From: Escherichia coli
GTDB lineage: Bacteria; Pseudomonadota; Gammaproteobacteria; Enterobacterales; Enterobacteriaceae
Reading direction: 5' to 3' (one strand)
Length of the DNA: 64,000 nucleotides
Assembly: GCF_041886205.1 (NCBI RefSeq)
Contig: NZ_CP169029.1
The notes beneath the pieces are model-generated. The model did not search any database, was not told where the DNA came from, and saw only the letters and a program-made list of their open reading frames with translations. Shown in pieces: positions 4,049 to 60,386 of the stretch. Within the stretch, counting starts at the first letter, position 1, and every line of letters begins with the position of its first letter. A program made the translations under genes and the position numbers.

Positions 4049-4100
4049 TCGGACGTCGTTCGGATAAAGCGTTCACGCCGCATCCGACAAAACATCCGGC
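4049..4100. repeat. REP (repetitive extragenic palindromic) element
   Basis: gtcggacgtcgttcggataaagcgttcacgccgcatccgacaa resembles the E. coli REP consensus (GGATAAGGCGTTCACGCCGCATCCGGC). Confidence 0.6.
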
Positions 4101-4154
4101 ACACCAGACAGCAAAAGATTTTAAAACGTTAATTCACACCCAGGAGTGATAAAG

Positions 4155-4868
4155 ATGCAAAAGCAAGCTGAGTTGTATCGTGGTAAAGCGAAAACCGTAT
4201 ACAGCACGGAAAACCCGGACCTGTTGGTGCTCGAATTCCGCAATGATACGTCAGCAGGGGATGGCGCGCGCATTGAGCAGTTTGATCGCAAAGGTATGGT
4301 GAACAACAAGTTCAACTACTTCATTATGAGCAAACTGGCTGAAGCGGGTATCCCGACTCAAATGGAGCGTCTGCTCTCCGATACCGAATGTCTGGTGAAA
4401 AAGCTGGATATGGTGCCGGTTGAGTGTGTCGTGCGTAACCGTGCTGCTGGCTCTCTGGTGAAACGTCTTGGAATCGAAGAAGGTATTGAGCTGAACCCGC
4501 CGCTGTTCGATCTGTTCCTGAAAAACGACGCCATGCACGATCCGATGGTCAACGAATCTTACTGCGAAACCTTTGGCTGGGTGAGCAAAGAGAACCTGGC
4601 GCGTATGAAAGAGCTGACCTACAAAGCGAACGACGTGCTGAAAAAACTGTTCGATGATGCTGGTCTGATTCTGGTCGACTTCAAGCTGGAATTTGGTCTG
4701 TACAAAGGCGAAGTGGTACTGGGTGATGAGTTCTCCCCGGACGGTAGCCGCCTGTGGGACAAAGAAACGCTGGAGAAAATGGACAAAGACCGTTTCCGCC
4801 AGAGCCTCGGTGGCCTGATCGAGGCCTATGAAGCCGTCGCCCGCCGCCTGGGTGTACAGCTGGACTGA
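4155..4868 (+). CDS. purC: Phosphoribosylaminoimidazole-succinocarboxamide synthase (SAICAR synthetase)
   Basis: 237 aa from ATG 4155 ([17 protein letters not shown]...), CAGGAG RBS; recognised PurC. Confidence 0.93.
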
Positions 4869-23104: not shown

Positions 23105-23392
23105 AGGAAATACTCCTTGAAAAGTAAAGTGTTAGATGAGTGCGTTAATTCACACTTCTGAGAAATTTCGCTAAACGCATCAAAAAAGCATAGCAGACAG
23201 GCATGGTATTGCTGGATTAAGCAGGTAACATCAGTGTTATAGGATTATTACCAAAACATTATATTAATGGTGAGAGTTTTGACTTGCTCAAAGTCTGTAG
23301 ACTCCGGCAGGGTAATAATGTGCGCCACGTTGTGGGCAGGGGCTGTTGCCCACACACTTTATTTGTGAACGTTACGTGAAAGGAACAACCAA

Positions 23393-25964: not shown

Positions 25965-26300
25965 ATGGATAAAGAACGCATCATTCAGGAATTTGTGCCC
26001 GGCAAACAGGTCACACTGGCGCATCTCATCGCGCATCCCGGTGAGGAACTGGCGAAGAAAATCGGCGTTCCGGATGCGGGCGCAATTGGCATTATGACGC
26101 TAACTCCCGGCGAAACGGCGATGATCGCCGGTGATTTAGCGCTGAAAGCCGCTGATGTGCATATCGGTTTTCTCGACCGATTCAGCGGTGCATTGGTGAT
26201 TTATGGCTCGGTGGGCGCAGTAGAAGAAGCGTTATCACAAACCGTCAGCGGTTTAGGTCGCTTATTAAATTATACGCTTTGTGAAATGACCAAAAGTTAA
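25965..26300 (+). CDS. eutS: Ethanolamine-utilisation microcompartment shell protein EutS
   Basis: 111 aa from [15 protein letters not shown]; BMC-domain protein; ORF track extends upstream. Confidence 0.88.
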
Positions 26301-26312
26301 TACGAGGCATTC

Positions 26313-26792
26313 ATGAAACGAATTGCGTTTGTGGGTAGCGTCGGGGCAGGAAAAACAACGTTATTTAATGCGTTGCAGGGGAATTATACCCTCGCCAGAA
26401 AAACACAGGCCGTGGAATTTAATGATAAGGGCGATATTGATACGCCGGGTGAATATTTTAACCATCCCCGCTGGTATCACGCCTTAATTACCACGCTACA
26501 GGATGTAGACATGCTGATCTATGTCCATGGCGCAAATGACCCGGAAAGTCGGTTGCCTGCCGGGTTGCTGGATATTGGCGTCAGCAAACGGCAAATCGCC
26601 GTCATCAGTAAAACGGACATGCCAGATGCTGACGTCGCCGCAACGCGAAAGTTATTGCTTGAGACGGGTTTCGAAGAGCCGATTTTCGAGCTAAACAGCC
26701 ACGACCCGCAAAGCGTGCAGCAACTGGTGGATTATCTGGCATCTCTCACCAAACAGGAGGAAGCAGGTGAAAAAACTCATCACAGCGAATGA
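26313..26792 (+). CDS. eutP: Ethanolamine utilisation protein EutP (P-loop GTPase/acetate kinase-like)
   Basis: 159 aa; Walker A GSVGAGKTT. Confidence 0.9.
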   Translation: MKRIAFVGSVGAGKTTLFNALQGNYTLARKTQAVEFNDKGDIDTPGEYFNHPRWYHALITTLQDVDMLIYVHGANDPESRLPAGLLDIGVSKRQIAVISKTDMPDADVAATRKLLLETGFEEPIFELNSHDPQSVQQLVDYLASLTKQEEAGEKTHHSE

Positions 26793-27468
26793 TATTCGTG
26801 AAGCACACGCGCGCGGCGAACAGGCAATGTCCGTGGTTCTGCGCGCCAGCATTATTACCCCGGAAGCCCGTGAAGTGGCGGATCTACTGGGTTTTACCAT
26901 CACCGAATGTGATGAATCGATCCCGGTAACGGCGTCCGTGCCCGCCAGCGTGCCAGCCGACAAAACCGAAAGCCAGCGCATCCGCGAAACCATCATTGCC
27001 CAGCTGCCGGAAGGCCAGTTTACCGAAAGCCTGGTCGCACAGCTGATGGAAAAAGTGATGAAGGAAAAACAGTCGCTGGAGCAGGGCGCAATGCAGCCGA
27101 GCTTCAAATCGGTGACCGGCAAAGGCGGCATCAAAGTGATTGATGGCAGTAGCGTCAAGTTTGGTCGTTTCGACGGCGCAGAGCCGCATTGCGTGGGCTT
27201 GACTGATCTTGTGACCGGAGACGACGGCAGCAGCATGGCCGCCGGTTTTATGCAGTGGGAGAACGCATTCTTCCCGTGGACCCTGAACTACGACGAAATC
27301 GACATGGTGCTGGAAGGAGAGCTGCATGTTCGCCACGAAGGCCAAACCATGATCGCCAAAGCAGGCGACGTGATGTTTATCCCGAAAGGCTCCAGCATCG
27401 AATTTGGTACGACATCCAGCGTGAAATTCCTGTATGTCGCCTGGCCGGCTAACTGGCAATCCCTATGA
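26767..27468 (+). CDS. eutQ: Ethanolamine utilisation protein EutQ (cupin)
   Basis: 233 aa; overlaps eutP 3' end by 26 nt in another frame; recognised EutQ. Confidence 0.88.
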   Translation: MKKLITANDIREAHARGEQAMSVVLRASIITPEAREVADLLGFTITECDESIPVTASVPASVPADKTESQRIRETIIAQLPEGQFTESLVAQLMEKVMKEKQSLEQGAMQPSFKSVTGKGGIKVIDGSSVKFGRFDGAEPHCVGLTDLVTGDDGSSMAAGFMQWENAFFPWTLNYDEIDMVLEGELHVRHEGQTMIAKAGDVMFIPKGSSIEFGTTSSVKFLYVAWPANWQSL

Positions 27469-28268
27469 AAGATTTCATCACCGAAGCATGGCTAAGAGCG
27501 AACCATACGCTCAGCGAAGGCGCAGAGATCCATCTCCCTGCGGACAGTCGCCTGACGCCCTCTGCCCGGGAGTTACTGGAAAGCCGCCATCTGCGCATCA
27601 AGTTTATTGACGAGCAGGGCCGCCTGTTTGTTGACGATGAACAGCAGCAGCCGCAGCCCGTTCATGGGCTGACCAGTAGCGATGAACATCCGCAGGCGTG
27701 CTGCGAACTGTGCCGCCAGCCGGTGGCAAAAAAGCCAGATACTCTGACTCACCTGTCGGCGGAAAAAATGGTCGCCAAAAGCGATCCGCGTCTGGGTTTT
27801 CGCGCGGTTCTCGACAGCACCATTGCGCTGGCAGTGTGGCTGCAAATTGAACTGGCGGAGCCGTGGCAGCCGTGGCTGGCGGATATCCGTTCGCGTCTTG
27901 GCAACATTATGCGTGCCGATGCGCTGGGGGAACCGCTGGGCTGCCAAGCGATTGTCGGGCTTTCTGACGAAGATCTGCATCGGCTTTCTCATCAGCCGCT
28001 GCGCTATCTCGACCACGATCATCTGGTGCCGGAAGCCAGCCACGGGCGCGATGCTGCGTTGCTCAATCTGCTACGCACCAAAGTGCGGGAAACCGAAACC
28101 GTAGCGGCGCAGGTCTTTATCACCCGCAGCTTTGAAGTATTACGCCCGGACATCTTGCAGGCGCTGAACCGCCTTTCGAGCACGGTCTACGTGATGATGA
28201 TCCTGAGCGTAACGAAGAAGCCGCTAACGGTGAAGCAGATCCAACAACGACTGGGGGAAACGCAATGA
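27465..28268 (+). CDS. eutT: Ethanolamine utilisation cob(I)alamin adenosyltransferase EutT
   Basis: 267 aa; ATGA overlap with eutQ stop; recognised EutT. Confidence 0.9.
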
Positions 28269-29281
28269 TTATTGAACGTTGTCGTGAACTGGCGTTGCGA
28301 GCGCCCGCCAGAGTGGTTTTTCCGGATGCGTTAGATCAACGTGTGCTGAAAGCTGCGCAATATTTACATCAACAAGGTCTGGCAACGCCCATTCTGGTCG
28401 CCAATCCGTTTGAACTTCGTCAGTTTGCGCTCAGTCACGGCGTGGCGATGGACGGGCTACAGGTGATTGATCCGCATGGCAACCTCGCAATGCGGGAAGA
28501 ATTTGCTCATCGCTGGCTGGCCCGCGCGGGCGAAAAAACGCCGCCGGATGCGCTGGAAAAACTTACCGATCCGCTGATGTTCGCCGCCGCAATGGTCAGC
28601 GCCGGTAAAGCGGATGTCTGTATCGCGGGCAACCTCTCTTCCACGGCGAATGTGCTGCGTGCCGGATTACGCATTATCGGCTTGCAGCCAGGCTGTAAAA
28701 CGCTCTCTTCCATTTTCCTGATGCTGCCACAGTACAGCGGCCCGGCGTTGGGCTTTGCCGATTGCAGCGTGGTGCCACAGCCGACGGCGGCGCAACTGGC
28801 GGATATCGCGCTTGCCAGTGCCGAAACCTGGCGCGCCATCACCGGAGAAGAGCCGCGCGTGGCGATGTTGTCGTTTTCCAGCAACGGTAGCGCCCGTCAC
28901 CCCTGCGTAGCCAACGTCCAGCAGGCGACAGAAATCGTCCGTGAGCGCGCACCAAAGCTGGTGGTTGATGGCGAGTTACAGTTTGACGCCGCCTTCGTGC
29001 CGGAAGTGGCGGCGCAAAAAGCGCCTGCAAGCCCGCTACAAGGCAAAGCCAATGTGATGGTTTTTCCGTCGCTGGAAGCCGGAAATATTGGCTACAAAAT
29101 CGCACAACGACTTGGCGGATATCGTGCCGTCGGGCCATTGATACAAGGACTTGCCGCGCCGATGCACGATCTCTCTCGTGGTTGTAGCGTGCAGGAAATT
29201 ATCGAGCTGGCGCTGGTGGCAGCAGTGCCGCGTCAGACAGAAGTGAACCGCGAAAGCAGTTTACAAACACTGGTTGAATGA
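28265..29281 (+). CDS. eutD: Phosphotransacetylase EutD (EutI)
   Basis: 338 aa PTA-family protein; ATGA overlap with eutT. Confidence 0.92.
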
Positions 29282-29319
29282 ACGGTCCCGTTCTGGACCC
29301 TGATAAAGAGGAAAGCACA

Positions 29320-29613
29320 ATGGAAGCATTAGGAATGATCGAAACCCGGGGCCTGGTTGCACTGATTGAGGCTTCTGACGCGATGGTTAAAGCTGCGCGC
29401 GTCAAGCTGGTTGGTGTTAAGCAGATTGGCGGCGGCCTGTGTACTGCCATGGTTCGTGGTGATGTTGCAGCCTGTAAAGCCGCGACCGATGCAGGTGCCG
29501 CAGCGGCACAGCGTATCGGCGAGCTGGTATCTGTACACGTTATCCCGCGTCCGCACGGCGACCTGGAAGAAGTCTTCCCGATCGGCCTGAAAGGCGATAG
29601 CAGCAACCTGTAA
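29320..29613 (+). CDS. eutM: Microcompartment shell protein EutM (BMC-H)
   Basis: 97 aa from [26 protein letters not shown] (canonical BMC domain), AGAGGA RBS; ORF track starts 14 codons upstream. Confidence 0.9.
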
Positions 29614-29719
29614 TCACCCTGTGTGACGTCGATTCGGGCGTCACGCTCTCTCCTTTTTCATTTTACCTTCTGCGGAGGGTAGGGGGAGCTTTTACCTGAA
29701 ATACGCCACGGAGGCGGGT

Positions 29720-30007
29720 ATGAAACTGGCAGTCGTCACTGGACAAATTGTTTGTACCGTACGCCATCACGGACTGGCGCATGACAAATTGCTGATGGTG
29801 GAAATGATTGATCCACAAGGTAATCCTGACGGGCAATGTGCCGTCGCCATCGACAATATTGGCGCGGGAACCGGGGAGTGGGTGTTGCTGGTGAGTGGCA
29901 GTTCCGCCCGCCAGGCGCATAAAAGCGAAACGTCACCGGTCGATCTGTGCGTGATTGGCATTGTCGATGAGGTGGTGTCTGGCGGTCAGGTAATTTTCCA
30001 CAAATAA
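29720..30007 (+). CDS. eutN: Microcompartment vertex protein EutN (BMV/CcmL-EutN family)
   Basis: 95 aa MKLAVVTGQIVCTVRHHGL...; recognised EutN. Confidence 0.92.
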   Translation: MKLAVVTGQIVCTVRHHGLAHDKLLMVEMIDPQGNPDGQCAVAIDNIGAGTGEWVLLVSGSSARQAHKSETSPVDLCVIGIVDEVVSGGQVIFHK

Positions 30008-30018
30008 GGCAGAACATC

Positions 30019-31422
30019 ATGAATCAACAGGATATTGAACAGGTGGTGAAAGCGGTACTGCTGAAAATGCAAAGCAGTGACACGCCGCCCGCCACCGTTC
30101 ATGAGATGGGCATTTTCGCGTCCCTGGATGACGCCGTTGCGGCAGCCAAAGTTGCCCAGCAAGGGTTAAAGAGCGTGGCAATGCGCCAGTTAGCCATTGC
30201 TGCCATTCGTGAAGCAGGCGAAAAACACGCCAGAGATTTAGCGGAACTTGCCGTCAGTGAAACCGGCATGGGCCGCGTCGAAGATAAATTTGCCAAAAAC
30301 GTCGCTCAGGCGCGCGGCACGCCAGGCGTTGAGTGTCTCTCTCCGCAGGTGCTGACTGGCGACAACGGCCTGACTTTAATTGAAAACGCGCCCTGGGGCG
30401 TGGTGGCTTCGGTGACGCCTTCCACTAACCCGGCGGCAACCGTAATTAACAACGCCATCAGCCTGATTGCCGCGGGCAACAGCGTCATTTTTGCCCCGCA
30501 TCCGGCGGCGAAAAAAGTCTCCCAGCGGGCGATCACGCTGCTCAACCAGGCGATTGTTGCCGCAGGCGGGCCGGAAAACTTACTGGTTACTGTGGCAAAT
30601 CCGGATATCGAAACCGCGCAACGCTTGTTCAAGTTTCCGGGCATCGGCCTTCTGGTGGTGACCGGCGGCGAAGCGGTAGTAGAAGCGGCGCGTAAACACA
30701 CCAATAAACGTCTGATTGCCGCAGGCGCTGGCAACCCGCCGGTAGTGGTGGATGAAACCGCTGACCTCGCCCGTGCTGCTCAGTCCATCGTCAAAGGCGC
30801 GTCTTTCGATAACAACATCATTTGTGCCGACGAAAAGGTACTGATTGTTGTTGATAGCGTAGCCGATGAACTGATGCGTCTGATGCAAGGCCAGCACGCG
30901 GTGAAACTGACCGCAGAGCAGGCGCAGCAACTGCAACCGGTGTTGCTGAAAAATATCGACGAGCGCGGAAAAGGCACCGTCAGCCGTGACTGGGTAGGTC
31001 GCGATGCGGCGAAAATCGCGGCGGCAATCGGCCTTAAAGTTCCGGAACAAACGCGACTGCTGTTTGTAGAAACCACCGCAGAACATCCGTTTGCCGTGAC
31101 CGAACTGATGATGCCGGTGCTGCCCGTCGTGCGCGTCGCCAACGTGGCGGATGCCATTGCGCTGGCGGTGAAACTGGAAGGCGGTTGCCACCACACGGCG
31201 GCAATGCACTCGCGCAACATCGAAAACATGAACCAGATGGCGAACGCCATTGATACCAGCATTTTCGTTAAGAACGGACCGTGCATTGCCGGGCTGGGTC
31301 TGGGCGGGGAAGGCTGGACCACCATGACCATCACCACGCCAACCGGTGAAGGGGTAACCAGCGCGCGGACGTTTGTCCGTCTGCGTCGCTGTGTATTAGT
31401 CGATGCGTTTCGCATTGTTTAA
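30019..31422 (+). CDS. eutE: Acetaldehyde dehydrogenase (acetylating) EutE
   Basis: 467 aa aldehyde dehydrogenase-family protein; recognised EutE. Confidence 0.92.
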   Translation: MNQQDIEQVVKAVLLKMQSSDTPPATVHEMGIFASLDDAVAAAKVAQQGLKSVAMRQLAIAAIREAGEKHARDLAELAVSETGMGRVEDKFAKNVAQARGTPGVECLSPQVLTGDNGLTLIENAPWGVVASVTPSTNPAATVINNAISLIAAGNSVIFAPHPAAKKVSQRAITLLNQAIVAAGGPENLLVTVANPDIETAQRLFKFPGIGLLVVTGGEAVVEAARKHTNKRLIAAGAGNPPVVVDETADLARAAQSIVKGASFDNNIICADEKVLIVVDSVADELMRLMQGQHAVKLTAEQAQQLQPVLLKNIDERGKGTVSRDWVGRDAAKIAAAIGLKVPEQTRLLFVETTAEHPFAVTELMMPVLPVVRVANVADAIALAVKLEGGCHHTAAMHSRNIENMNQMANAIDTSIFVKNGPCIAGLGLGGEGWTTMTITTPTGEGVTSARTFVRLRRCVLVDAFRIV

Positions 31423-31432
31423 GGAGTAACCG

Positions 31433-32269
31433 ATGGCGCACGACGAACAAGGGCTCACCCCACGTCTGCAAACGGCGGCAACGCTGTGTAACCAGACGCC
31501 CGCCGCGACGGAATCTCCGCTATGGCTGGGGGTGGATCTGGGCACCTGCGATGTGGTGTCGATGGTTGTCGACCGCGACGGTCAGCCGGTGGCGGTATGC
31601 CTCGACTGGGCCGATGTGGTCCGCGACGGCATCGTCTGGGATTTCTTCGGCGCGGTCACCATTGTTCGTCGCCATCTCGACACGCTCGAGCAGCAATTCG
31701 GGCGTCGTTTTAGCCATGCGGCGACTTCATTTCCTCCAGGTACGGACCCGCGTATTTCCATCAACGTGCTGGAGTCTGCCGGACTGGAAGTGAGCCATGT
31801 GCTGGATGAGCCAACCGCAGTCGCGGATCTACTGCAACTGGATAACGCCGGTGTAGTGGATATCGGCGGTGGCACTACCGGCATTGCCATCGTGAAAAAG
31901 GGCAAAGTGACGTACTCGGCGGATGAAGCCACCGGCGGACATCACATCTCTCTGACTCTCGCCGGAAATCGTCGTATTTCGCTGGAAGAGGCAGAGCAGT
32001 ACAAGCGCGGTCATGGTGACGAGATTTGGCCCGCGGTGAAACCGGTGTACGAAAAAATGGCGGACATTGTCGCCCGGCATATTGAAGGGCAGGGCATTAC
32101 TGATTTATGGCTGGCGGGCGGCTCTTGTATGCAACCGGGCGTGGCGGAACTGTTTCGCAAACAATTCCCGGCGTTAAAGGTGCATTTACCGCAGCACAGT
32201 TTGTTTATGACCCCGCTGGCGATCGCCAGTAGTGGGCGAGAGAAAGCGGAGGGGCTATATGCAAAATGA
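31433..32269 (+). CDS. eutJ: Ethanolamine utilisation chaperone-like protein EutJ (actin/Hsp70 fold)
   Basis: 278 aa; DLGTxxV and DIGGGTT ATPase motifs. Confidence 0.9.
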   Translation: MAHDEQGLTPRLQTAATLCNQTPAATESPLWLGVDLGTCDVVSMVVDRDGQPVAVCLDWADVVRDGIVWDFFGAVTIVRRHLDTLEQQFGRRFSHAATSFPPGTDPRISINVLESAGLEVSHVLDEPTAVADLLQLDNAGVVDIGGGTTGIAIVKKGKVTYSADEATGGHHISLTLAGNRRISLEEAEQYKRGHGDEIWPAVKPVYEKMADIVARHIEGQGITDLWLAGGSCMQPGVAELFRKQFPALKVHLPQHSLFMTPLAIASSGREKAEGLYAK

Positions 32270-33446
32270 ATTGCAGACCGCGCTCTTTCAGGCGTTCGAT
32301 ACCCTGAATCTGCAACGGGTAAAAACATTTAGCGTTCCACCGGTGACGCTTTGCGGTCCGGGCGCGGTGAGCAGTTGCGGGCAGCAAGCGCAAACGCGTG
32401 GGCTGAAACATCTGTTCGTGATGGCAGACAGCTTTTTGCATCAGGCGGGGATGACCGCCGGGCTGACGCGTAGCCTGGCCGTTAAAGGCATCGCCATGAC
32501 GCTCTGGCCGTGTCCGGTGGGCGAACCGTGCATTACTGACGTGTGTGCAGCCGTGGCGCAGTTGCGTGAATCAGGCTGTGACGGGGTGATTGCGTTTGGC
32601 GGCGGCTCGGTGCTGGATGCAGCAAAAGCCGTGGCGTTGCTGGTGACGAACCCCGATAGCACGCTGGCGGAAATGTCAGAAACCAGCGTTCTGCAACCGC
32701 GCCTGCCGTTGATTGCCATTCCAACGACCGCCGGAACCGGCTCTGAAACCACCAACGTAACGGTGATTATCGACGCGGTGAGCGGGCGCAAGCAGGTGTT
32801 AGCCCATGCCTCGCTGATGCCGGATGTGGCGATTCTCGACGCCGCATTGACCGAAGGTGTGCCGTCGCATGTCACGGCGATGACCGGTATTGACGCGTTA
32901 ACCCATGCCATTGAAGCGTACAGCGCGCTGAACGCCACACCGTTTACTGACAGTCTGGCGATTGGCGCTATTGCGATGATTGGCAAATCGCTGCCGAAAG
33001 CGGTGGGCTACGGTCATGACCTTGCCGCGCGCGAGAGCATGTTACTGGCTTCATGTATGGCGGGAATGGCGTTTTCCAGTGCGGGGCTTGGGTTGTGCCA
33101 CGCGATGGCGCATCAGCCAGGGGCGGCGCTGCATATTCCACACGGTCTGGCGAACGCCATGTTGCTGCCAACGGTGATGGAATTTAACCGGATGGTTTGT
33201 CGCGAACGGTTTAGTCAGATTGGTCGGGCACTGCGAACTAAAAAATCCGACGATCGTGACGCTATTAACGCGGTAAGTGAGCTGATTGCGGAAGTTGGGA
33301 TTGGTAAACGACTGGGCGATGTTGGCGCGACATCTGCGCATTACGGTGCATGGGCGCAGGCCGCGCAGGAAGATATTTGTCTGCGCAGCAACCCGCGTAC
33401 CGCCAGCCTGGAACAGATTGTCGGACTGTACGCGGCGGCGCAATAA
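32259..33446 (+). CDS. eutG: Alcohol dehydrogenase EutG (iron-containing)
   Basis: 395 aa from MQNELQTALFQAF with GGAGGGG RBS; overlaps eutJ by 11 nt; Fe-ADH family. Confidence 0.9.
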   Translation: MQNELQTALFQAFDTLNLQRVKTFSVPPVTLCGPGAVSSCGQQAQTRGLKHLFVMADSFLHQAGMTAGLTRSLAVKGIAMTLWPCPVGEPCITDVCAAVAQLRESGCDGVIAFGGGSVLDAAKAVALLVTNPDSTLAEMSETSVLQPRLPLIAIPTTAGTGSETTNVTVIIDAVSGRKQVLAHASLMPDVAILDAALTEGVPSHVTAMTGIDALTHAIEAYSALNATPFTDSLAIGAIAMIGKSLPKAVGYGHDLAARESMLLASCMAGMAFSSAGLGLCHAMAHQPGAALHIPHGLANAMLLPTVMEFNRMVCRERFSQIGRALRTKKSDDRDAINAVSELIAEVGIGKRLGDVGATSAHYGAWAQAAQEDICLRSNPRTASLEQIVGLYAAAQ

Positions 33447-33447
33447 A

Positions 33448-33731
<284 letters not shown>

Positions 33732-33762
33732 AATAAATAACAACTAACAGGGAGTAAAGGCG

Positions 33763-34989
33763 ATGGGAATTAACGAAATCATCATGTACATCATGATGTT
33801 CTTTATGCTGATAGCTGCCGTAGACAGGATCCTGTCGCAGTTCGGCGGTTCTGCTCGTTTCCTCGGTAAGTTCGGTAAAAGTATCGAAGGATCAGGCGGT
33901 CAGTTCGAAGAAGGCTTTATGGCAATGGGCGCTCTGGGTCTGGCGATGGTCGGTATGACCGCGCTGGCACCGGTACTGGCTCACGTACTCGGGCCGGTAA
34001 TTATCCCGGTTTACGAAATGCTCGGCGCAAACCCGTCAATGTTCGCCGGAACGCTGCTGGCGTGCGATATGGGCGGCTTCTTCCTCGCCAAAGAGCTGGC
34101 GGGCGGCGACGTAGCAGCGTGGCTATACTCTGGGTTAATTCTCGGGTCGATGATGGGGCCAACGATTGTGTTTTCCATTCCGGTGGCGCTCGGCATTATC
34201 GAACCTTCTGACCGTCGTTATCTGGCGCTCGGCGTGCTGGCGGGCATTGTGACCATTCCGATTGGCTGTATTGCTGGTGGTCTGGTTGCTATGTACTCCG
34301 GTGTGCAGATCAATGGTCAGCCGGTGGAATTCACCTTTGCGCTGATCCTGATGAACATGATCCCGGTACTTATCGTTGCGGTGCTGGTGGCGCTGGGGCT
34401 GAAATTCATCCCGGAAAAAATGATCAACGGCTTCCAGATCTTCGCCAAATTCCTCGTTGCATTGATCACCCTCGGTCTTGCTGCCGCGGTAGTGAAATTC
34501 CTCCTTGGCTGGGAACTGATCCCCGGTCTGGACCCTATCTTTATGGCTCCTGGCGATAAACCCGGTGAAGTGATGCGCGCCATTGAAGTTATCGGTTCTA
34601 TCTCCTGCGTGCTGTTAGGGGCGTATCCAATGGTGCTGCTGCTGACTCGCTGGTTTGAAAAACCGCTGATGAGCGTCGGTAAACTACTGAATATGAACAA
34701 CATTGCGGCAGCCGGCATGGTGGCAACGCTTGCCAACAACATCCCGATGTTTGGCATGATGAAGCAGATGGATACCCGCGGCAAAGTCATCAACTGCGCC
34801 TTCGCCGTTTCCGCTGCTTTCGCCCTGGGTGACCACTTAGGCTTCGCCGCTGCCAACATGAACGCCATGATCTTCCCGATGATTGTCGGCAAGTTGATCG
34901 GCGGCGTAACGGCGATTGGCGTGGCGATGATGCTGGTGCCAAAAGAAGACGCGACCACGACTAAAACCGAAGCGGAGGCACAATCGTGA
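33763..34989 (+). CDS. eutH: Ethanolamine permease/facilitator EutH
   Basis: 408 aa polytopic membrane protein; recognised EutH. Confidence 0.92.
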   Translation: MGINEIIMYIMMFFMLIAAVDRILSQFGGSARFLGKFGKSIEGSGGQFEEGFMAMGALGLAMVGMTALAPVLAHVLGPVIIPVYEMLGANPSMFAGTLLACDMGGFFLAKELAGGDVAAWLYSGLILGSMMGPTIVFSIPVALGIIEPSDRRYLALGVLAGIVTIPIGCIAGGLVAMYSGVQINGQPVEFTFALILMNMIPVLIVAVLVALGLKFIPEKMINGFQIFAKFLVALITLGLAAAVVKFLLGWELIPGLDPIFMAPGDKPGEVMRAIEVIGSISCVLLGAYPMVLLLTRWFEKPLMSVGKLLNMNNIAAAGMVATLANNIPMFGMMKQMDTRGKVINCAFAVSAAFALGDHLGFAAANMNAMIFPMIVGKLIGGVTAIGVAMMLVPKEDATTTKTEAEAQS

Positions 34990-36389
34990 ACACTCGCCAG
35001 CTATTGAGCGTCGGTATCGATATCGGCACCACCACCACCCAGGTGATTTTCTCCCACCTGGAACTGGTTAACCGTGCGGCGGTGTCGCAGGTGCCGCGCT
35101 ACGAATTCATCAAACGCGAAATTAGCTGGCAAAGCCCGGTGTACTTTACCCCTGTCGATAAACAGGGTGGTTTAAAAGAAGCGGAACTGAAATCGCTGAT
35201 TTTAGAGCAATATCAGGCTGCGGGCATTGCGCCGGAAAGCGTTGATTCTGGTGCCATCATCATCACCGGTGAAAGCGCGAAAACCCGCAATGCTCGCCCG
35301 GCGGTGATGGCGCTCTCTCAATCGCTGGGGGATTTTGTCGTTGCCAGCGCCGGGCCGCACCTCGAATCCGTGATCGCCGGTCACGGAGCCGGGGCACAAA
35401 CCCTTTCTGAACAACGGCTGTGTCGGGTACTGAATATCGACATCGGCGGTGGCACCGCGAACTACGCCCTGTTCGATGCCGGAAAAATCAGCGGCACCGC
35501 CTGCCTCAACGTCGGTGGTCGCCTGCTGGAAACCGACAGCCAGGGGCGCGTGGTTTACGCTCATAAACCGGGGCAGATGATTGTGGATGAGTGCTTCGGT
35601 GCAGGCACTGACGCCCGTTCGCTGACCGGCGCGCAGCTGGTGCAGGTTACCCGGCGGATGGCGGCGCTGATTGTCGAAGTGATTGACGGAACGCTTTCGC
35701 CGCTCGCGCAGGCATTGATGCAAACCGGTTTGCTGCCCGCAGGTGTTACGCCCGAAATCATTACGCTTTCTGGCGGCGTGGGCGAATGTTATCGCCACCA
35801 GCCCGCCGACCCGTTCTGTTTTGCCGATATTGGCCCACTTCTGGCAACGGCGCTGCATGACCATCCGCGCCTGCGTGAGATGAATGTGCAGTTTCCAGCG
35901 CAAACCGTACGCGCCACGGTGATTGGCGCGGGTGCACATACCCTTTCGCTCTCTGGCAGCACAATCTGGCTGGAGGGCGTACAACTGCCGCTGCGCAATT
36001 TGCCGGTGGCGATCCCAATTGATGAAACGGATCTGGTGTGTGCCTGGCAACAGGCGCTGATTCAGCTGGATCTTGATCCTAAAACTGACGCGTACGTGCT
36101 GGCGCTTCCCGCCTCGCTGCCTGTGCGTTACGCCGCGGTACTGACGGTCATCAACGCGCTGGTCGATTTCGTCGCGCGTTTTCCGAATCCGCATCCCCTG
36201 CTGGTGGTGGCCGGGCAGGACTTTGGTAAAGCTCTGGGCATGTTGTTGCGCCCACAGCTACAACAACTCCCGTTGGCAGTCATTGACGAAGTGATTGTCC
36301 GCGCGGGGGACTATATCGACATTGGTACGCCTCTTTTTGGCGGATCGGTTGTGCCGGTGACGGTGAAATCACTCGCATTTCCTTCCTGA
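34986..36389 (+). CDS. eutA: Ethanolamine ammonia-lyase reactivase EutA
   Basis: 467 aa; GTG start overlapping eutH stop (GTGA); recognised EutA. Confidence 0.9.
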   Translation: MNTRQLLSVGIDIGTTTTQVIFSHLELVNRAAVSQVPRYEFIKREISWQSPVYFTPVDKQGGLKEAELKSLILEQYQAAGIAPESVDSGAIIITGESAKTRNARPAVMALSQSLGDFVVASAGPHLESVIAGHGAGAQTLSEQRLCRVLNIDIGGGTANYALFDAGKISGTACLNVGGRLLETDSQGRVVYAHKPGQMIVDECFGAGTDARSLTGAQLVQVTRRMAALIVEVIDGTLSPLAQALMQTGLLPAGVTPEIITLSGGVGECYRHQPADPFCFADIGPLLATALHDHPRLREMNVQFPAQTVRATVIGAGAHTLSLSGSTIWLEGVQLPLRNLPVAIPIDETDLVCAWQQALIQLDLDPKTDAYVLALPASLPVRYAAVLTVINALVDFVARFPNPHPLLVVAGQDFGKALGMLLRPQLQQLPLAVIDEVIVRAGDYIDIGTPLFGGSVVPVTVKSLAFPS

Positions 36390-36400
36390 GGGAACGACTT

Positions 36401-37762
36401 ATGAAACTAAAGACCACATTGTTCGGCAATGTATATCAGTTTAAGGATGTAAAAGAGGTGCTGGCTAAAGCCAACGAACTGCGTTCGGGGGATGTGCTGG
36501 CGGGCGTTGCAGCGGCAAGCTCACAGGAGCGCGTGGCGGCAAAGCAGGTGTTGTCGGAAATGACCGTAGCGGACATCCGCAATAATCCGGTAATTGCCTA
36601 TGAAGATGACTGCGTGACGCGGCTGATTCAGGACGATGTTAACGAAACGGCCTACAACCAGATTAAAAACTGGAGCATCAGCGAACTGCGTGAGTATGTG
36701 CTGAGCGATGAAACCAGCGTGGACGACATTGCCTTTACCCGCAAAGGGCTGACCTCGGAAGTGGTCGCGGCGGTAGCGAAGATTTGCTCCAACGCGGACC
36801 TGATCTACGGCGCGAAGAAAATGCCGGTAATCAAAAAGGCCAATACCACCATCGGTATTCCGGGCACCTTTAGCGCCCGTTTGCAGCCAAATGACACCCG
36901 TGACGACGTGCAAAGTATCGCCGCGCAAATCTACGAAGGGCTTTCCTTCGGGGTGGGTGATGCGGTGATCGGCGTTAACCCGGTGACAGACGACGTGGAA
37001 AACTTAAGCCGCGTGTTGGACACCATTTATGGCGTGATCGACAAATTCAACATCCCAACTCAGGGCTGCGTACTGGCGCACGTCACCACCCAGATCGAAG
37101 CGATTCGTCGCGGCGCACCAGGCGGGCTGATTTTCCAGAGTATCTGTGGCAGCGAAAAAGGGCTGAAAGAGTTTGGCGTGGAACTGGCGATGCTCGATGA
37201 AGCACGCGCAGTGGGCGCGGAGTTCAACCGTATCGCCGGGGAAAACTGCCTCTACTTCGAAACCGGGCAGGGTTCTGCGCTATCCGCTGGCGCTAACTTC
37301 GGCGCAGACCAGGTGACGATGGAAGCACGTAACTATGGGCTGGCGCGTCATTACGATCCGTTTATCGTCAACACCGTGGTCGGCTTTATTGGGCCGGAGT
37401 ATCTCTACAACGATCGCCAGATTATCCGTGCGGGCTTAGAAGATCACTTTATGGGCAAGCTGAGCGGCATCTCTATGGGCTGTGACTGCTGCTACACCAA
37501 CCACGCTGACGCTGACCAGAACCTCAACGAAAACCTGATGATCCTGCTCGCCACCGCAGGCTGCAACTACATCATGGGGATGCCGCTGGGCGATGACATC
37601 ATGCTCAACTATCAGACCACCGCATTCCACGACACTGCCACTGTGCGTCAGTTACTCAACCTGCGCCCGTCACCGGAGTTTGAACGCTGGCTGGAAAGCA
37701 TGGGCATTATGGCAAACGGTCGCCTGACCAAACGGGCGGGCGATCCGTCACTGTTCTTCTGA
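36401..37762 (+). CDS. eutB: Ethanolamine ammonia-lyase large subunit EutB
   Basis: 453 aa; recognised EutB; begins 11 bp after eutA stop. Confidence 0.93.
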   Translation: MKLKTTLFGNVYQFKDVKEVLAKANELRSGDVLAGVAAASSQERVAAKQVLSEMTVADIRNNPVIAYEDDCVTRLIQDDVNETAYNQIKNWSISELREYVLSDETSVDDIAFTRKGLTSEVVAAVAKICSNADLIYGAKKMPVIKKANTTIGIPGTFSARLQPNDTRDDVQSIAAQIYEGLSFGVGDAVIGVNPVTDDVENLSRVLDTIYGVIDKFNIPTQGCVLAHVTTQIEAIRRGAPGGLIFQSICGSEKGLKEFGVELAMLDEARAVGAEFNRIAGENCLYFETGQGSALSAGANFGADQVTMEARNYGLARHYDPFIVNTVVGFIGPEYLYNDRQIIRAGLEDHFMGKLSGISMGCDCCYTNHADADQNLNENLMILLATAGCNYIMGMPLGDDIMLNYQTTAFHDTATVRQLLNLRPSPEFERWLESMGIMANGRLTKRAGDPSLFF

Positions 37763-37782
37763 TGACGCGGAGATAACACATC

Positions 37783-38667
37783 ATGGATCAAAAACAGATT
37801 GAAGAAATTGTACGCAGCGTGATGGCGTCAATGGGACAAGCGGCCCCCGCGCCGTCAGAAGCAAAGTGCGCCACCACCTGTGCGGCACCGGTGACCTCGG
37901 AAAGCTGCGCGCTGGATTTAGGCTCTGCGGAAGCAAAAGCGTGGATTGGCGTTGAAAACCCGCATCGCGCAGACGTATTAACAGAACTGCGCCGCAGCAC
38001 CGTGGCCCGCGTTTGTACCGGTCGTGCCGGTCCGCGTCCACGTACTCAGGCGCTGCTGCGTTTCCTGGCCGATCACTCTCGTTCGAAAGATACCGTACTG
38101 AAAGAAGTGCCGGAAGAGTGGGTGAAAGCACAAGGCTTGTTGGAAGTCCGCTCCGAAATTAGCGACAAAAATCTCTACCTGACTCGCCCGGATATGGGCC
38201 GCCGCCTGTGTGCAGAAGCTGTTGAAGCGCTGAAAGCACAGTGTGTTGCTAATCCGGACGTACAGGTCGTTATTTCTGATGGCCTGTCAACTGATGCGAT
38301 CACCGTGAACTACGAAGAGATCCTGCCACCGCTGATGGCGGGCCTGAAACAGGCCGGGCTGAAAGTCGGCACGCCATTCTTTGTTCGTTATGGTCGCGTG
38401 AAGATTGAAGATCAGATCGGTGAGATCCTCGGCGCGAAAGTAGTGATCCTGTTAGTGGGCGAACGCCCGGGATTAGGGCAGTCAGAAAGCCTCTCCTGCT
38501 ACGCCGTTTACTCACCGCGTATGGCGACCACCGTTGAGGCCGATCGCACCTGCATCTCAAACATTCACCAGGGCGGCACGCCGCCGGTTGAAGCCGCAGC
38601 GGTAATTGTGGATTTGGCGAAACGAATGCTGGAGCAGAAAGCATCCGGCATCAACATGACCCGATAA
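37783..38667 (+). CDS. eutC: Ethanolamine ammonia-lyase small subunit EutC
   Basis: 294 aa; recognised EutC. Confidence 0.92.
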
Positions 38668-38676
38668 GGAGGCATC

Positions 38677-39336
38677 ATGCCAGCTTTAGATTTGATTCGA
38701 CCGTCGGTAACCGCCATGCGGGTGATTGCCTCCGTTAACGCCGAATTTGCGCGTGAACTAAAATTGCCGCCGCATATTCGTAGCCTTGGGCTGATTTCTG
38801 CCGACTCCGATGACGTCACCTACATTGCCGCTGACGAAGCGACCAAACAGGCGATGGTCGAAGTGGTGTATGGCCGCTCGCTGTATGCGGGAGCTGCACA
38901 CGGACCGTCACCGACTGCCGGTGAAGTGCTGATTATACTGGGTGGGCCAAACCCGGCGGAAGTGCGTGCCGGTCTGGATGCGATGGTTGCACATATTGAA
39001 AATGGCGCTGCTTTCCAGTGGGCTAATGACGCAGAAAACACCGCATTCCTGGCACATGTAGTTTCGCGTACCGGTTCTTATCTCTCATCAACCGCCGGGA
39101 TCACGCTTGGCGATCCGATGGCGTATCTGGTGGCACCGCCGCTGGAAGCGACCTACGGCATTGATGCAGCGTTGAAATCTGCCGACGTACAGCTGGTGAC
39201 CTATGTCCCGCCACCGTCTGAAACCAACTACTCGGCAGCATTTTTAACCGGTAGCCAGGCCGCGTGTAAAGCAGCCTGTAACGCCTTTACCGATGCAGTG
39301 CTGGAAATCGCGCGTAATCCAATCCAGCGTGCGTAA
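38677..39336 (+). CDS. eutL: Microcompartment shell protein EutL (tandem BMC domains)
   Basis: 219 aa; recognised EutL. Confidence 0.92.
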
Positions 39337-39348
39337 CGGAGGTTGCCG

Positions 39349-39849
39349 ATGATCAATGCACTGGGATTGCTGGAAGTGGACGGCATGGTCGCCGCGATAG
39401 ATGCAGCGGATGCCATGCTCAAAGCAGCTAACGTTCGTCTGCTCAGTCACGAAGTGCTTGACCCTGGTCGCTTAACGCTGGTGGTGGAAGGCGATCTGGC
39501 GGCGTGTCGTGCGGCGCTGGACGCAGGTTGTGCTGCCGCGATGCGTACCGGGCGTGTCATCAGCCGCAAGGAGATCGGTCGGCCAGACGATGACACCCAG
39601 TGGCTGGTTACTGGCTTTAACCGCCAGCCGAAGCAACCCGTAAAGGAACCCGACGCGCCAGTTATCGTCGCCGAATCTGCTGACGAGTTGTTGGCGCTGT
39701 TAACATCAGTACGTCAGGGAATGACGGCAGGAGAAGTGGCTGCCCACTTTGGCTGGCCGCTGGAAAAAGCCAGAAATGCGCTCGAACAGCTCTTTTCTGC
39801 CGGGACGTTACGTAAACGCAGTAGTCGTTATCGTCTCAAGCCCCATTAA
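39349..39849 (+). CDS. eutK: Microcompartment shell protein EutK (BMC domain plus C-terminal helix-turn-helix-like tail)
   Basis: 166 aa from MINALGLLEVDGMVAAIDAADAM; ACGGAGG RBS 7 nt upstream of ATG 39349. Confidence 0.9.
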   Translation: MINALGLLEVDGMVAAIDAADAMLKAANVRLLSHEVLDPGRLTLVVEGDLAACRAALDAGCAAAMRTGRVISRKEIGRPDDDTQWLVTGFNRQPKQPVKEPDAPVIVAESADELLALLTSVRQGMTAGEVAAHFGWPLEKARNALEQLFSAGTLRKRSSRYRLKPH

Positions 39850-39894
39850 CCTGTCGGAGGTGCCGGGTGTCCTACAACACCCGGCATTAACATC

Positions 39895-40947
39895 ATGAAA
39901 AAGACCCGTACAGCCAATTTGCACCATCTTTATCATGAACCCTTACCCGAAAACCTGAAGCTCACGCCGAAGGTCGAAGTGGATAATGTTCATCAACGAC
40001 AGACAACGGATGTCTATGAACATGCTTTAACGATTACCGCCTGGCAGCAGATTTACGATCAGCTGCATCCGGGCAAGTTTCATGGTGAATTTACGGAAAT
40101 TCTACTCGATGATATTCAGGTTTTTCGTGAATACACCGGTCTGGCGCTGCGTCAGTCGTGCCTGGTCTGGCCGAACTCGTTCTGGTTTGGCATTCCGGCG
40201 ACGCGCGGTGAGCAGGGATTTATCGGTTCGCAATGTCTGGGAAGCGCGGAAATCGCCACCCGCCCTGGTGGCACTGAATTTGAACTGAGCACGCCGGATG
40301 ATTACACGATCCTGAGCGTGGTGCTTTCTGAAGATGTCATCACCCGGCAGGCTAACTTTTTGCATAACCCGGATCGGGTATTACATATGCTGCGTAGCCA
40401 GTCGGCGCTGGAAGTGAAAGAGCAGCATAAAGCCGCGCTGTGGGGCTTTGTCCAACAGGCGCTGGCGACGTTTTGCGAGAACCCGGAAAATCTCCATCAG
40501 CCTGCAGTGCGAAAAGTGCTGGGGGATAATTTGCTAATGGCGATGGGGGCGATGCTGGAAGACGCGCAACCAATGGTGACGGCGGAAAGCATCAGCCATC
40601 AGAGCTACCGTAGATTACTTTCCCGCGCCCGTGAATATGTGCTGGAAAATATGTCTGAGCCGGTGACGGTGCTGGACTTGTGTAATCAACTGCATGTCAG
40701 TCGCCGCACGCTACAAAACGCGTTTCACGCTATTTTAGGCATTGGCCCAAACGCGTGGCTGAAACGCATTCGCCTGAACGCCGTACGCCGCGAACTGATA
40801 AGCCCGTGGTCGCAAAGCACAACGGTAAAAGACGCCGCCATGCAGTGGGGATTCTGGCATCTGGGGCAATTTGCCACGGATTACCAGCAGCTGTTTGCCG
40901 AGAAGCCGTCGTTGACGTTGCATCAGCGGATGCGGGAATGGGGGTGA
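39895..40947 (+). CDS. eutR: AraC-family transcriptional activator of the eut operon, EutR
   Basis: 350 aa; C-terminal AraC-type HTH; recognised EutR. Confidence 0.92.
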
Positions 40948-48222: not shown

Positions 48223-49119
48223 TTATTCCTTGTCTAAAACCTGACGAATAAAGCCGCCGTGTTGATCCAGGCGTTTTTTAGCTTCTGCGGCATCGAGATT
48301 TTTCAGCACCATCACAATGGCCGTTTTACAGTTGCGCTCGCAGGCAATTAACGCCGCTTCCGCTTGTTCGGCATTACATCCGGTGGCGTTTTTAACGATA
48401 TTGACCTGGCGCACATGCAGTTTTTCGTTGGTGGCGACCACATCGACCATCAGGTTGCCGAACACTTTGCCAGATTTAATCATCAGCCCGGTGGAGAGCA
48501 TATTGAGCACCAGTTTCTGCGCTGTACCTGCTTTCATCCGCGAAGAACCGGTAACCACTTCGGCACCTACAATCGGTGTAATGGCAAACTCTGCGGTGGT
48601 TGAAACGGCGCTCCCCGGATTACAGGAAATTCCCACTGTGCGGCAGCCGAGCTGGCGTGCGTATTCCAGTCCGGCAATTACATACGGCGTGCGACCACTG
48701 GCCGCAATACCAACCACCACATCCTGTGCCGTTAAATTAATATTTTTCAGATCGTTAACACCACCTTCCCGGCTATCTTCAGCGCCTTCCACCGCGTGCT
48801 GAATGGCATATTCGCCTCCAGCAATCAAACCAACCACCAGACCCGGTTTAACGCCGTAGGTGGGCGGACATTCGCTGGCATCCAGAATCCCCAGACGACC
48901 GGATGTTCCCGCACCGAGATAAATCAGACGACCGCCGCCGCTGACCTGGGCGTGGATAACATCGATCGCCGCGGCGATATCCGGCAGGACGCGCTCAACG
49001 GCAAGCGGTACGGTTTTATCTTCATCGTTGATAATCCGGCACATTTCCAGCGTCGATACGCGGTCAATTTCAGCCGAGGCGGTGTTCGAGCCTTCAGTAA
49101 TCATCTTTTCTAGTTGCAT
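48223..49119 (-). CDS. murQ: N-acetylmuramic acid 6-phosphate etherase
   Basis: 298 aa SIS-domain protein; recognised MurQ. Confidence 0.92.
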
Positions 49120-49222
49120 CGGTGGTGACCTTACTATTTACGATCAAATAATTGCAGATGTATGGAATCATATATCCCGAATTGACAGACTTAAAGGAAT
49201 CATTGAGTCTACACTCGCAGAG

Positions 49223-49238
49223 TGTGAAGAGCGTCATA
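49223..49238. promoter_or_regulatory. Candidate CRP site in murQ-murR divergent promoter region
   Basis: TGTGA-agagcg-TCATA, close to CRP consensus TGTGA-N6-TCACA. Confidence 0.5.
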
Positions 49239-49282
49239 AGAACTTAAGCTGAATTTTTGCTGCCAGCCCAGGAGAGTGGAAG

Positions 49283-50140
49283 ATGTTGTACCTGACGAAA
49301 ATACGCAATGCGGAAAGTGAATTTACCGGGAACGAGCAAAAAATTGCTGACTTTCTGCGGGCCAACGTGAGTGAGCTGAAATCCGTCTCTTCGCGCAAGA
49401 TGGCGAAACAGCTCGGCATCAGTCAGTCGAGCATTGTGAAATTTGCCCAGAAGCTCGGCGCGCAAGGATTTACTGAATTGCGTATGGCGTTAATTGGCGA
49501 ATACAGTGCCAGCCGGGAGAAAACGAATGCCACGGCGCTGCACCTGCACAGTTCGATTACCAGTGATGATTCGCTGGAAGTGATTGCCCGCAAACTGAAT
49601 CGCGAAAAAGAGCTGGCGCTGGAGCAAACCTGTGCGTTGTTCGACTACGCGCGGCTGCAAAAAATCATTGAGGTCATCAGTAAAGCACCGTTTATCCAGA
49701 TAACTGGCCTGGGCGGGTCGGCGCTGGTGGGGCGCGATCTGTCGTTCAAACTGATGAAAATTGGCTATCGCGTGGCCTGCGAAGCCGACACGCACGTACA
49801 AGCCATCGTTTCCCAGGCGTTGAAAAAAGGCGATGTACAAATCGCTATCTCTTACAGCGGCAGTAAAAAAGAGATTGTCTTGTGCGCAGAAGCGGCACGA
49901 AAGCAGGGGGCAACGGTGATTGCCATTACTTCTCTGGCTGACTCTCCGCTGCGGCGGCTGGCGCATTTCACGCTCGATACCGTTTCCGGTGAAACCGAAT
50001 GGCGTAGCTCGTCGATGTCTACCCGCACGGCGCAAAATTCTGTTACCGATTTACTGTTTGTTGGTCTTGTGCAACTCAATGATGTGGAGTCATTGAAAAT
50101 GATTCAGCGCAGCAGTGAGCTAACACAACGCCTGAAATGA
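49283..50140 (+). CDS. murR: RpiR-family transcriptional repressor MurR
   Basis: 285 aa; N-terminal HTH plus SIS domain; divergent from murQ. Confidence 0.92.
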
Positions 50141-50268
50141 TGCATAAAGCAGCGACTGGATTGAGATTTTCCTGAATTAGTGAGCTGATCCGCAGCAATA
50201 TTTTGTTTATCCTGTATTTTCAGAGGGAATGGAGTGTAACGCTCTGTATTAACAAGGAGAGCATTAAA

Positions 50269-60023: not shown

Positions 60024-60355
60024 TGTATTTCCCCAACTTATAGGTTTAGTGTTGTGGAACTAAAGTCTAGTCTGGCGGTTCGACTTTAGCCTGGATAGTT
60101 AGCGCCAGTTTTTAACAGACGCGACGCACGAAGAGCGCAATACAGTCCATTGCTGGCGGGTGTTGACCGCTGACGTTTCGTACGTCATTAAACATTATGC
60201 CGCTAAAGGAAGAATTGAACCAAATCATAAAATCGATTCAGCTTTGGCTTTTCCTGTAACGATTAATTTCGCGCATCAAAATAATTAGTCTGGTTAAATA
60301 CCAGTTCCGACAGGCTGAATCAATGCCAGGAGGGGCGAAAGTTTGAAGCAGGCCA

Positions 60356-60386
60356 CAAAAAAGCACCTGAAAAGGTGCTTTTTTAC
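60356..60386. terminator. Bidirectional rho-independent terminator downstream of cysK
   Basis: AAAAAAgcacc-tgaaaa-ggtgcTTTTTT, about 20 bp past the cysK stop. Confidence 0.8.

Follow-up and report, generated by a model that had tools for sequence, protein, structure and literature searches.

The cAMP-CRP site in the divergent murQP/murR control region of Escherichia coli and the candidate MurR boxes beside it

Introduction

The closest described system for the site considered here is the CRP site of the murQP operon of Escherichia coli itself. RegulonDB, as reproduced in Table S4 of Shimada et al. (2011), lists for murQP an activator site TATGACGCTCTTCACA at -71.5 and -79.5, and murP is recorded elsewhere as under 'CRP, MurR' control with Jaeger and Mayer 2008 (J Bacteriol 190:6598) as the source. 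The repressor MurR acts on two neighbouring repeats in the gap between murQ and murR and is released by MurNAc-6-P, which is described without coordinates or operator sequence in the paper on the MurR structure (NAR 2022); there, the relief of MurR binding by MurNAc-6-P was followed by EMSA on the whole intergenic fragment and not per box. Walker et al. (2023, eLife 12:RP86699) demonstrated by EMSA, footprinting, and in vitro transcription that the corresponding promoter PmurQP of Vibrio cholerae is activated by CRP from a site at -41.5.

Here, we describe the control region between murQ and murR in a window from an E. coli chromosome, where the window is the whole stretch of 64,000 nucleotides that was analysed. 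Two features of this region are central to what follows, namely the CRP site and the repeats that MurR might use. In the work of Jaeger and Mayer, cAMP-CAP reportedly activates the murQ promoter from an upstream class I site and is said to hinder murR transcription as well, acting as a roadblock. The promoters of murQ and murR are said to lie face-to-face, and MurR, probably as a tetramer, reportedly occupies two adjacent inverted repeats.

The gap between murQ and murR

The gap is bordered by the following two genes:

48223..49119, minus strand: murQ, encoding the MurNAc-6-P etherase, first gene of murQ-murP-pbp4b (298-aa ORF and RefSeq annotation of identical sequence)
49283..50140, plus strand: murR, encoding a repressor of the RpiR/AlsR family (285-aa ORF and RefSeq annotation of identical sequence)

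With murQ on the minus and murR on the plus strand, the gap comprises the 163 bp from 49120 to 49282. The initial annotation had taken exactly this interval for a divergent murQ-murR control region, which is confirmed by the bounds of both ORFs and by the RefSeq names in strains of 100% identity, as 601 bases around the CRP site are 100% identical to several complete genomes that carry RefSeq annotations of murQ and murR. Compared with K-12 MG1655, the gap has three substitutions (49189, 49249, and 49256), and the CRP site is unaffected by them.

Strain LHM10-1 (NZ_CP037903.1) is 100% identical around murQ/murR; elsewhere, several small indels (offsets of -152 to +48) and divergent patches, located at about 45.0-45.7 kb and 51-55 kb, set the window and this strain apart. 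At about 26000-40800 of the window, the eut operon runs from eutS to eutR without interruption. In K-12, the CPZ-55 prophage lies between eutA and eutB, and the distance between the CRP sites of murQ and talA differs by about 5 kb between the window and K-12, which is consistent with the presence of CPZ-55 in the latter.

The CRP site

One site in the gap corresponds to the RegulonDB entry:

49223..49238, no strand assigned: cAMP-CRP site TGTGAagagcgTCATA (sequence, weight matrix, RegulonDB identity, and conservation across genera)

The plus-strand 16-mer is the reverse complement of the sequence in the RegulonDB rows, which is given in the sense of murQ. On the plus strand it reads TGTGA (49223-49227), agagcg (49228-49233), and TCATA (49234-49238), and it matches TGTGA-N6-TCACA in five of five plus four of five half-site positions with a 6-bp spacer. 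The reading of the initial annotation, which had placed a site with nine of ten matching positions here, is therefore exact. With TCATA, the distal half-site departs from the consensus, and the site lacks the A/T-rich flanks that are preferred by strong CRP sites.

The consensus with at most one mismatch is found five times in the 64-kb window compared with 1.71 +/- 1.30 times in shuffled sequences, and scaling from the shuffles to the 163 bp of the gap gives a chance expectation of about 0.004 such matches. A match in at least nine of ten positions is present in only 13 of the 126 catalogued CRP sites. From these 126 distinct RegulonDB sites (Shimada et al., 2011, Table S4), with the murQP rows excluded, a symmetric weight matrix was built, the total information of which is low (5.1 bits) owing to numerous weak or mis-registered entries in the RegulonDB list. 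With this matrix TGTGAagagcgTCATA scores 9.92 bits and takes rank 7 among the 63,985 positions of the window, so that the check by weight matrix that had been proposed together with the first reading was passed, and it outscores 81% of the known CRP sites when the catalogue is scored by leave-one-out. Among roughly 5,450 intergenic positions of the window it ranks about third; the division into coding and intergenic positions is approximate, since upstream of 45.7 kb the positions of the window and of LHM10-1 do not correspond base by base. No other 16-mer in the gap exceeds about 5 bits with the same matrix. Further top intergenic matches are catalogued CRP targets, namely hyfA/bcp, talA/maeB, and ptsH (Shimada et al., 2011, Table S3), and the matrix therefore discriminates.

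Strong intergenic matches to the matrix are located at 755-770, 23139-23154, 60214-60229, and 60342-60357. Three of these four coincide with or closely resemble the sequences given for hyfA/bcp, maeB/talA, and ptsH in the same Table S3, and the match at 60214 is the second one upstream of ptsH.

The spacer between murR and murQ was not recovered by the genomic SELEX-chip for CRP, where it figures as a database target without SELEX sequence (Shimada et al., 2011, Table S3); the same SELEX-chip also missed galE and many other accepted CRP targets. In the available portions of the supplements of the ChIP-exo paper (Latif, 2018), murQ is not mentioned, and a search of the full-text literature for the sequence of the CRP site, for MurR-box strings, for face-to-face promoters, and for the old gene names yfeT and yfeU gave nothing relevant.

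Transcription starts and promoter geometry

Transcription starts were taken from the TSS-seq table of Kim et al. (2012), in which three starts are listed for this region, and mapped from K-12 onto the window. Together with the promoter elements that we assign to them, they are as follows:

49159, minus strand: murQ start P1 with a 40-nt 5' UTR (Kim et al., 2012, K-12 position 2543755, 7 reads)
49235, minus strand: upstream start in the sense of murQ with a 116-nt UTR, within the CRP site (Kim et al., 2012, K-12 position 2543679, 8 reads)
49217, plus strand: murR start with a 66-nt 5' UTR (Kim et al., 2012, K-12 position 2543697, 14 reads)
49151, minus strand: further murQ start, deduced solely from the RegulonDB value of -79.5 (arithmetic)
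49167..49172, minus strand: putative -10 hexamer TATGAT of murQ P1, at -13..-8 (sequence and distance to the start at 49159)
49190..49195, minus strand: putative weak -35 hexamer TTTAAG of murQ P1, 3/6 to consensus, with a 17-bp spacer (sequence)
49182..49187, plus strand: perfect -35 hexamer TTGACA, at -35..-30 of the murR start (sequence and position of the start)
49125..49152, plus strand: promoter-like GTGACC-16-AATAAT, possible distal murR promoter with a start near 49159 (consensus scan only)

The centre of the CRP site at 49230.5 is located at -71.5 from the murQ start at 49159, which equals the RegulonDB value and is a class I position in the series -61.5/-71.5/-82.5/-92.5. The TATGAT hexamer is invariant in Escherichia, Citrobacter, and S. 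arizonae. A weak -35 like that of murQ P1 is typical of activator-dependent promoters. On the side of murR, no convincing -10 was found at normal spacing after TTGACA, and the CRP site spans +7..+22 of the transcript that starts at 49217. The table of Kim et al. (2012) has no start at 49151 and no TSS support for GTGACC-16-AATAAT. The start at 49235 is not among the RegulonDB promoter positions consulted here.

The starts at 49217 and 49235 are face-to-face with an overlap of 19 nt and thus complementary 5' ends. The starts at 49217 and 49159, on the other hand, are back-to-back, and the promoter map is therefore only partly reconciled with the face-to-face arrangement that Jaeger and Mayer reportedly described.

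Orthologous control regions

A scan for MurQ in species-representative genomes gave 32 loci. In Escherichia, two Citrobacter, Vibrio, and Enterovibrio, murR is divergent beside murQ, and in Salmonella arizonae, another Citrobacter, and Rahnella it is located about 1.9 kb upstream of murQ. The best match to the CRP matrix is strong (10-12 bits) in every murR-linked control region and has the same register within the Enterobacterales. The site is TTTGACGCTCTTCACA in the Escherichia clades and E. whittamii, TTTGATTGTCCTCACA in Citrobacter, TTTGATAGCCCTCACA in S. arizonae, and TATGAACTTGGTCACA in Rahnella. These enterobacterial sites all have TCACA as the half nearer to the promoter and vary in the 6-bp spacer, and half-sites that are kept while the spacer has diverged are the pattern that would be expected of a protein-binding site. 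The Vibrio, Enterovibrio, and Grimontia loci carry TGTGATTnnTATCACC, nearer to the gene than the enterobacterial site, and this sequence matches the proven class II (-41.5) CRP site of V. cholerae PmurQP.

The 16-mer could in principle be a chance consensus match without any regulatory role, as near-consensus CRP-like 16-mers are also found inside coding sequence of the window (e.g., at 2519, 42143, and 21510) and as the SELEX-chip did not detect the spacer. The low number of matches expected in the gap and the entry as activator site in RegulonDB speak against such a coincidence, and the preservation of register and half-sites across four genera, with the spacer changing, makes it unlikely on comparative grounds; overall we regard it as highly improbable. 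Even less credible is that the 16-mer is an FNR site instead of a CRP site. FNR and CRP sites are related, and murQP is expressed in an FNR-dependent manner under anaerobiosis in Shigella flexneri according to RNA-seq data in the literature. However, the 16-mer matches TTGAT-N4-ATCAA in only 6 of 10 positions, its perfect half contains the G of GTGA by which CRP sites can be told from FNR sites, and the orthologous sites keep TCACA and not ATCAA. As the CRP site is such a poor FNR match, the FNR effect on murQP of S. flexneri is probably indirect. A CRP site is thus the reading that we follow, and the catabolite control of the MurNAc operon by CRP that had been suggested at the outset is supported by the activator entry in RegulonDB, the weight matrix, the class I distance from TSS-seq, and the register across genera.

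In S. arizonae, Citrobacter sp. Res13, and Rahnella, a gene for a Porin_4-like protein of 361 aa and a DUF2057 gene are located ahead of murQ and would be driven by the CRP/MurR module:

L010 584-2500, L020 581-2500, and L014 and L016 about 510-2476: loci with the Porin_4-like and DUF2057 genes

These two genes may provide a dedicated outer-membrane entry route for MurNAc.

Candidate MurR boxes

MurR operator repeats had been expected in the gap by the initial annotation, and two candidate boxes with a ATGATTCC core, 32 bp apart, can now be delimited from the repeated core and its conservation:

49165..49177, minus strand: candidate MurR box B GGATAtatGATTC, at -18..-6 of murQ P1, containing the -10
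49197..49209, minus strand: candidate MurR box A GACTCaatGATTC, at -50..-38 of murQ P1 and likewise at -20..-8 of the murR start at 49217

The repeat reads GGAATCAT on the plus strand, and of the three copies of its core in the 64 kb two are inside the gap. The perfect -35 hexamer TTGACA at 49182-49187 is located between boxes A and B and inside the spacer of murQ P1. An alignment from Escherichia to Citrobacter contains invariant blocks at both boxes, AGACTCAATGATTC at box A and ATATATGATTCCA at box B, and the spacing TCACA-21-GATTCC-26-GATTCC is the same in E. coli and S. arizonae and amounts to 20/26 in Rahnella. Judged by these alignments, a register-conserved module of one CRP site and two boxes appears to extend across the Enterobacterales.

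All near-palindromes of the type 6+3+6 in the control regions outside of Escherichia were collected by an arm-matching scan. A palindrome family (G)GAAT(A/C)-N3-(T/A/G)ATTC(C) recurs in every species scanned, for example as GGAATATTTTATTCC in Vibrio and Enterovibrio. Boxes A and B of E. coli are each just 4/6 self-complementary, and an inverted-repeat finder reported no inverted repeats in the gap at a seed of 6. Both boxes can be assumed to belong to a GAATA-N3-(T/G)ATTC family that is common to all murR-linked control regions, which would give a candidate consensus for the MurR box, and MurR is predicted to bind at boxes A and B.

Other repeats were rejected as the conserved MurR determinant, since their outer arms are not conserved in the Escherichia clades and in Citrobacter. 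These are the perfect palindrome ACACTCTGCGAGTGT and two imperfect inverted repeats that are confined to E. coli, GATGTATG-gaat-CATATATC and GACTTAA-N8-TTGAGTC. A perfect 15-bp palindrome ACACTC-tgc-GAGTGT at 49211-49225 has its centre at the murR start (49217) and shares bases with the TCACA half of the CRP site. The right arm of this palindrome is unconserved in the Escherichia clades and in Citrobacter, and the palindrome may either belong to the published 'adjacent inverted repeats' or be due to chance. A third palindrome of the MurR type adjoins the murR start codon in Citrobacter and S. arizonae and is absent from the shorter gap of E. coli:

L011 2331-2345, L010 607-621, and L020 604-618: palindrome GGAATCAnnAATTCC in the Citrobacter and S. 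arizonae loci

The position of box A also bears on a further reading of the CRP site, in which it would serve, as a class II-type activator site, a cryptic minus-strand promoter TTCACA-18-AATGAT (49228..49199) with a start near 49192. This pair of hexamers was reported by the promoter scan, and the centre of the CRP site would be near -38.5. This value deviates from the canonical -41.5, no start near 49192 is contained in the table of Kim et al. (2012), and AATGAT is part of the conserved box A, which leaves the cryptic promoter as a scarcely tenable explanation compared with the class I arrangement at murQ P1.

Population variation and lineages without murR

Among 5,426 complete E. coli genomes, 4,378 contain murR, and in 4,094 of the latter the 36-nt stretch around the CRP site is identical. 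In 1,047 of the 5,426 genomes, about one fifth, murR is absent (e.g., in the ST131 strain JJ2434). The allele of these genomes is nearly uniform and has ucpA directly after murQ, and E. albertii has the same murR-less allele:

window 49120-50268 compared with L002 (E. coli JJ2434) 4061-4339 and L008 (E. albertii) 2341-2500: murR-less allele

The homology between this allele and the window ends at 49209, just past box A. In the exact register of the CRP site, the allele carries a degenerate CRP-like sequence TTTCAGTGACATCACA with 8.6 bits, and remnants of both MurR boxes are present, with box B mutated to GATCCC. In JJ2434, pbp4b/yfeW is reduced to a fragment. A search of the full-text literature for murR in relation to phylogroup found nothing relevant.

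That a CRP-like site is kept without murR argues that the site serves murQ. This is of importance for a reading in which the CRP site is mainly a negative element that blocks murR at +7..+22 as well as the start at 49235, and murQ activation is indirect. Such a role would fit the murR start at 49217 and the murQ-sense start at 49235 inside the site, and it would also fit the work of Jaeger and Mayer, in which CAP reportedly acts as a roadblock on murR. However, the degenerate site is kept in register in the 1,047 murR-less E. coli genomes and in E. albertii, which points to murQ as its main client. In addition, the role noted in RegulonDB is that of an activator, -71.5 is an activating class I position, and CRP activates murQP of V. 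cholerae directly. A mainly negative role is consequently very unlikely, and activation of murQ is the function on which the model below is built.

It is conceivable, albeit with somewhat less than even confidence, that in the murR-less lineages MurNAc catabolism and recycling are under CRP alone and hence derepressed, and that in murR-bearing strains MurR at box A acts as a CRP anti-activator and does not repress solely through occlusion of the -10, since box A is located where the alpha C-terminal domain of RNA polymerase must dock.

Discussion

Taken together, the sequence at 49223-49238 is very likely the site at which cAMP-CRP acts in the control region between the divergent murQP and murR, and a class I activator site for murQ. 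In the absence of glucose, cAMP-CRP would bind there at a class I position, with its centre at -71.5 from the murQ start (49159) and on the same helical face as -61.5. CRP would then recruit RNA polymerase, presumably via the alpha C-terminal domain, to the murQ promoter, whose -10 (TATGAT) is good and whose -35 (TTTAAG) is poor. MurR on box B would cover the murQ -10 and on box A the region from -50 to -38, between CRP and the -35, and would shut the murQ promoter until it is released by MurNAc-6-P. With release of MurR by MurNAc-6-P and activation by CRP, murQ expression would need both signals. As the murR transcript starts at 49217, bound CRP on +7..+22 should impede murR transcription, and it would also cover the minor murQ-sense start at 49235. 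The sequence of the site, its score, its position relative to published starts, its database entry, and its conservation are results, whereas we infer that CRP contacts the alpha C-terminal domain and obstructs murR, that MurR occupies the two boxes, and that MurR at box A blocks activation by CRP.

The CRP site, its activator role, and its position are already known from RegulonDB, based on the study of 2008. There is nothing new for E. coli in the site itself, and the initial annotation was correct but ordinary; it does show that reading of the raw sequence alone can locate a genuine, experimentally supported regulatory site. The additions made here are modest and comprise the apparent extension of a module of CRP site and two boxes throughout the Enterobacterales, the candidate consensus for MurR boxes, and the absence of murR in a large lineage of E. 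coli. The latter, with a CRP-like site kept, could matter for cell-wall recycling and for the use of MurNAc in extra-intestinal pathogenic strains.

Compared with known systems, the site does not differ substantively from the CRP-murQP site of RegulonDB (Jaeger and Mayer, 2008), as the K-12 16-mer, the flanks, and the gene pair are identical. Class I promoters such as lacP1 (-61.5) and, at -71.5, glnAp and prpR likewise have a single CRP dimer upstream on the activating face and a weak -35. Unlike in these promoters, a candidate repressor box, box A, is located between CRP and the -35 of murQ, and the CRP site of murQ lies in the transcribed leader of the divergent murR. PmurQP of V. cholerae drives the same operon and also has a murR-linked palindrome of the GAATA-N3-TATTC family adjoining the CRP site; in contrast to E. 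coli, its CRP site is of class II (-41.5) and shared with HapR, and TGTGATTnnTATCACC cannot be aligned with the enterobacterial site. Similar in sequence is the CRP site TGTGAAGAGGGTCATA of chbBCARFG (RegulonDB, -83.5), which is identical to the murQ site in 15 of 16 positions including TCATA and differs in one spacer base. Each of the two precedes an operon for an amino-sugar PTS at a class I-type position, but they belong to different loci and have different flanks.
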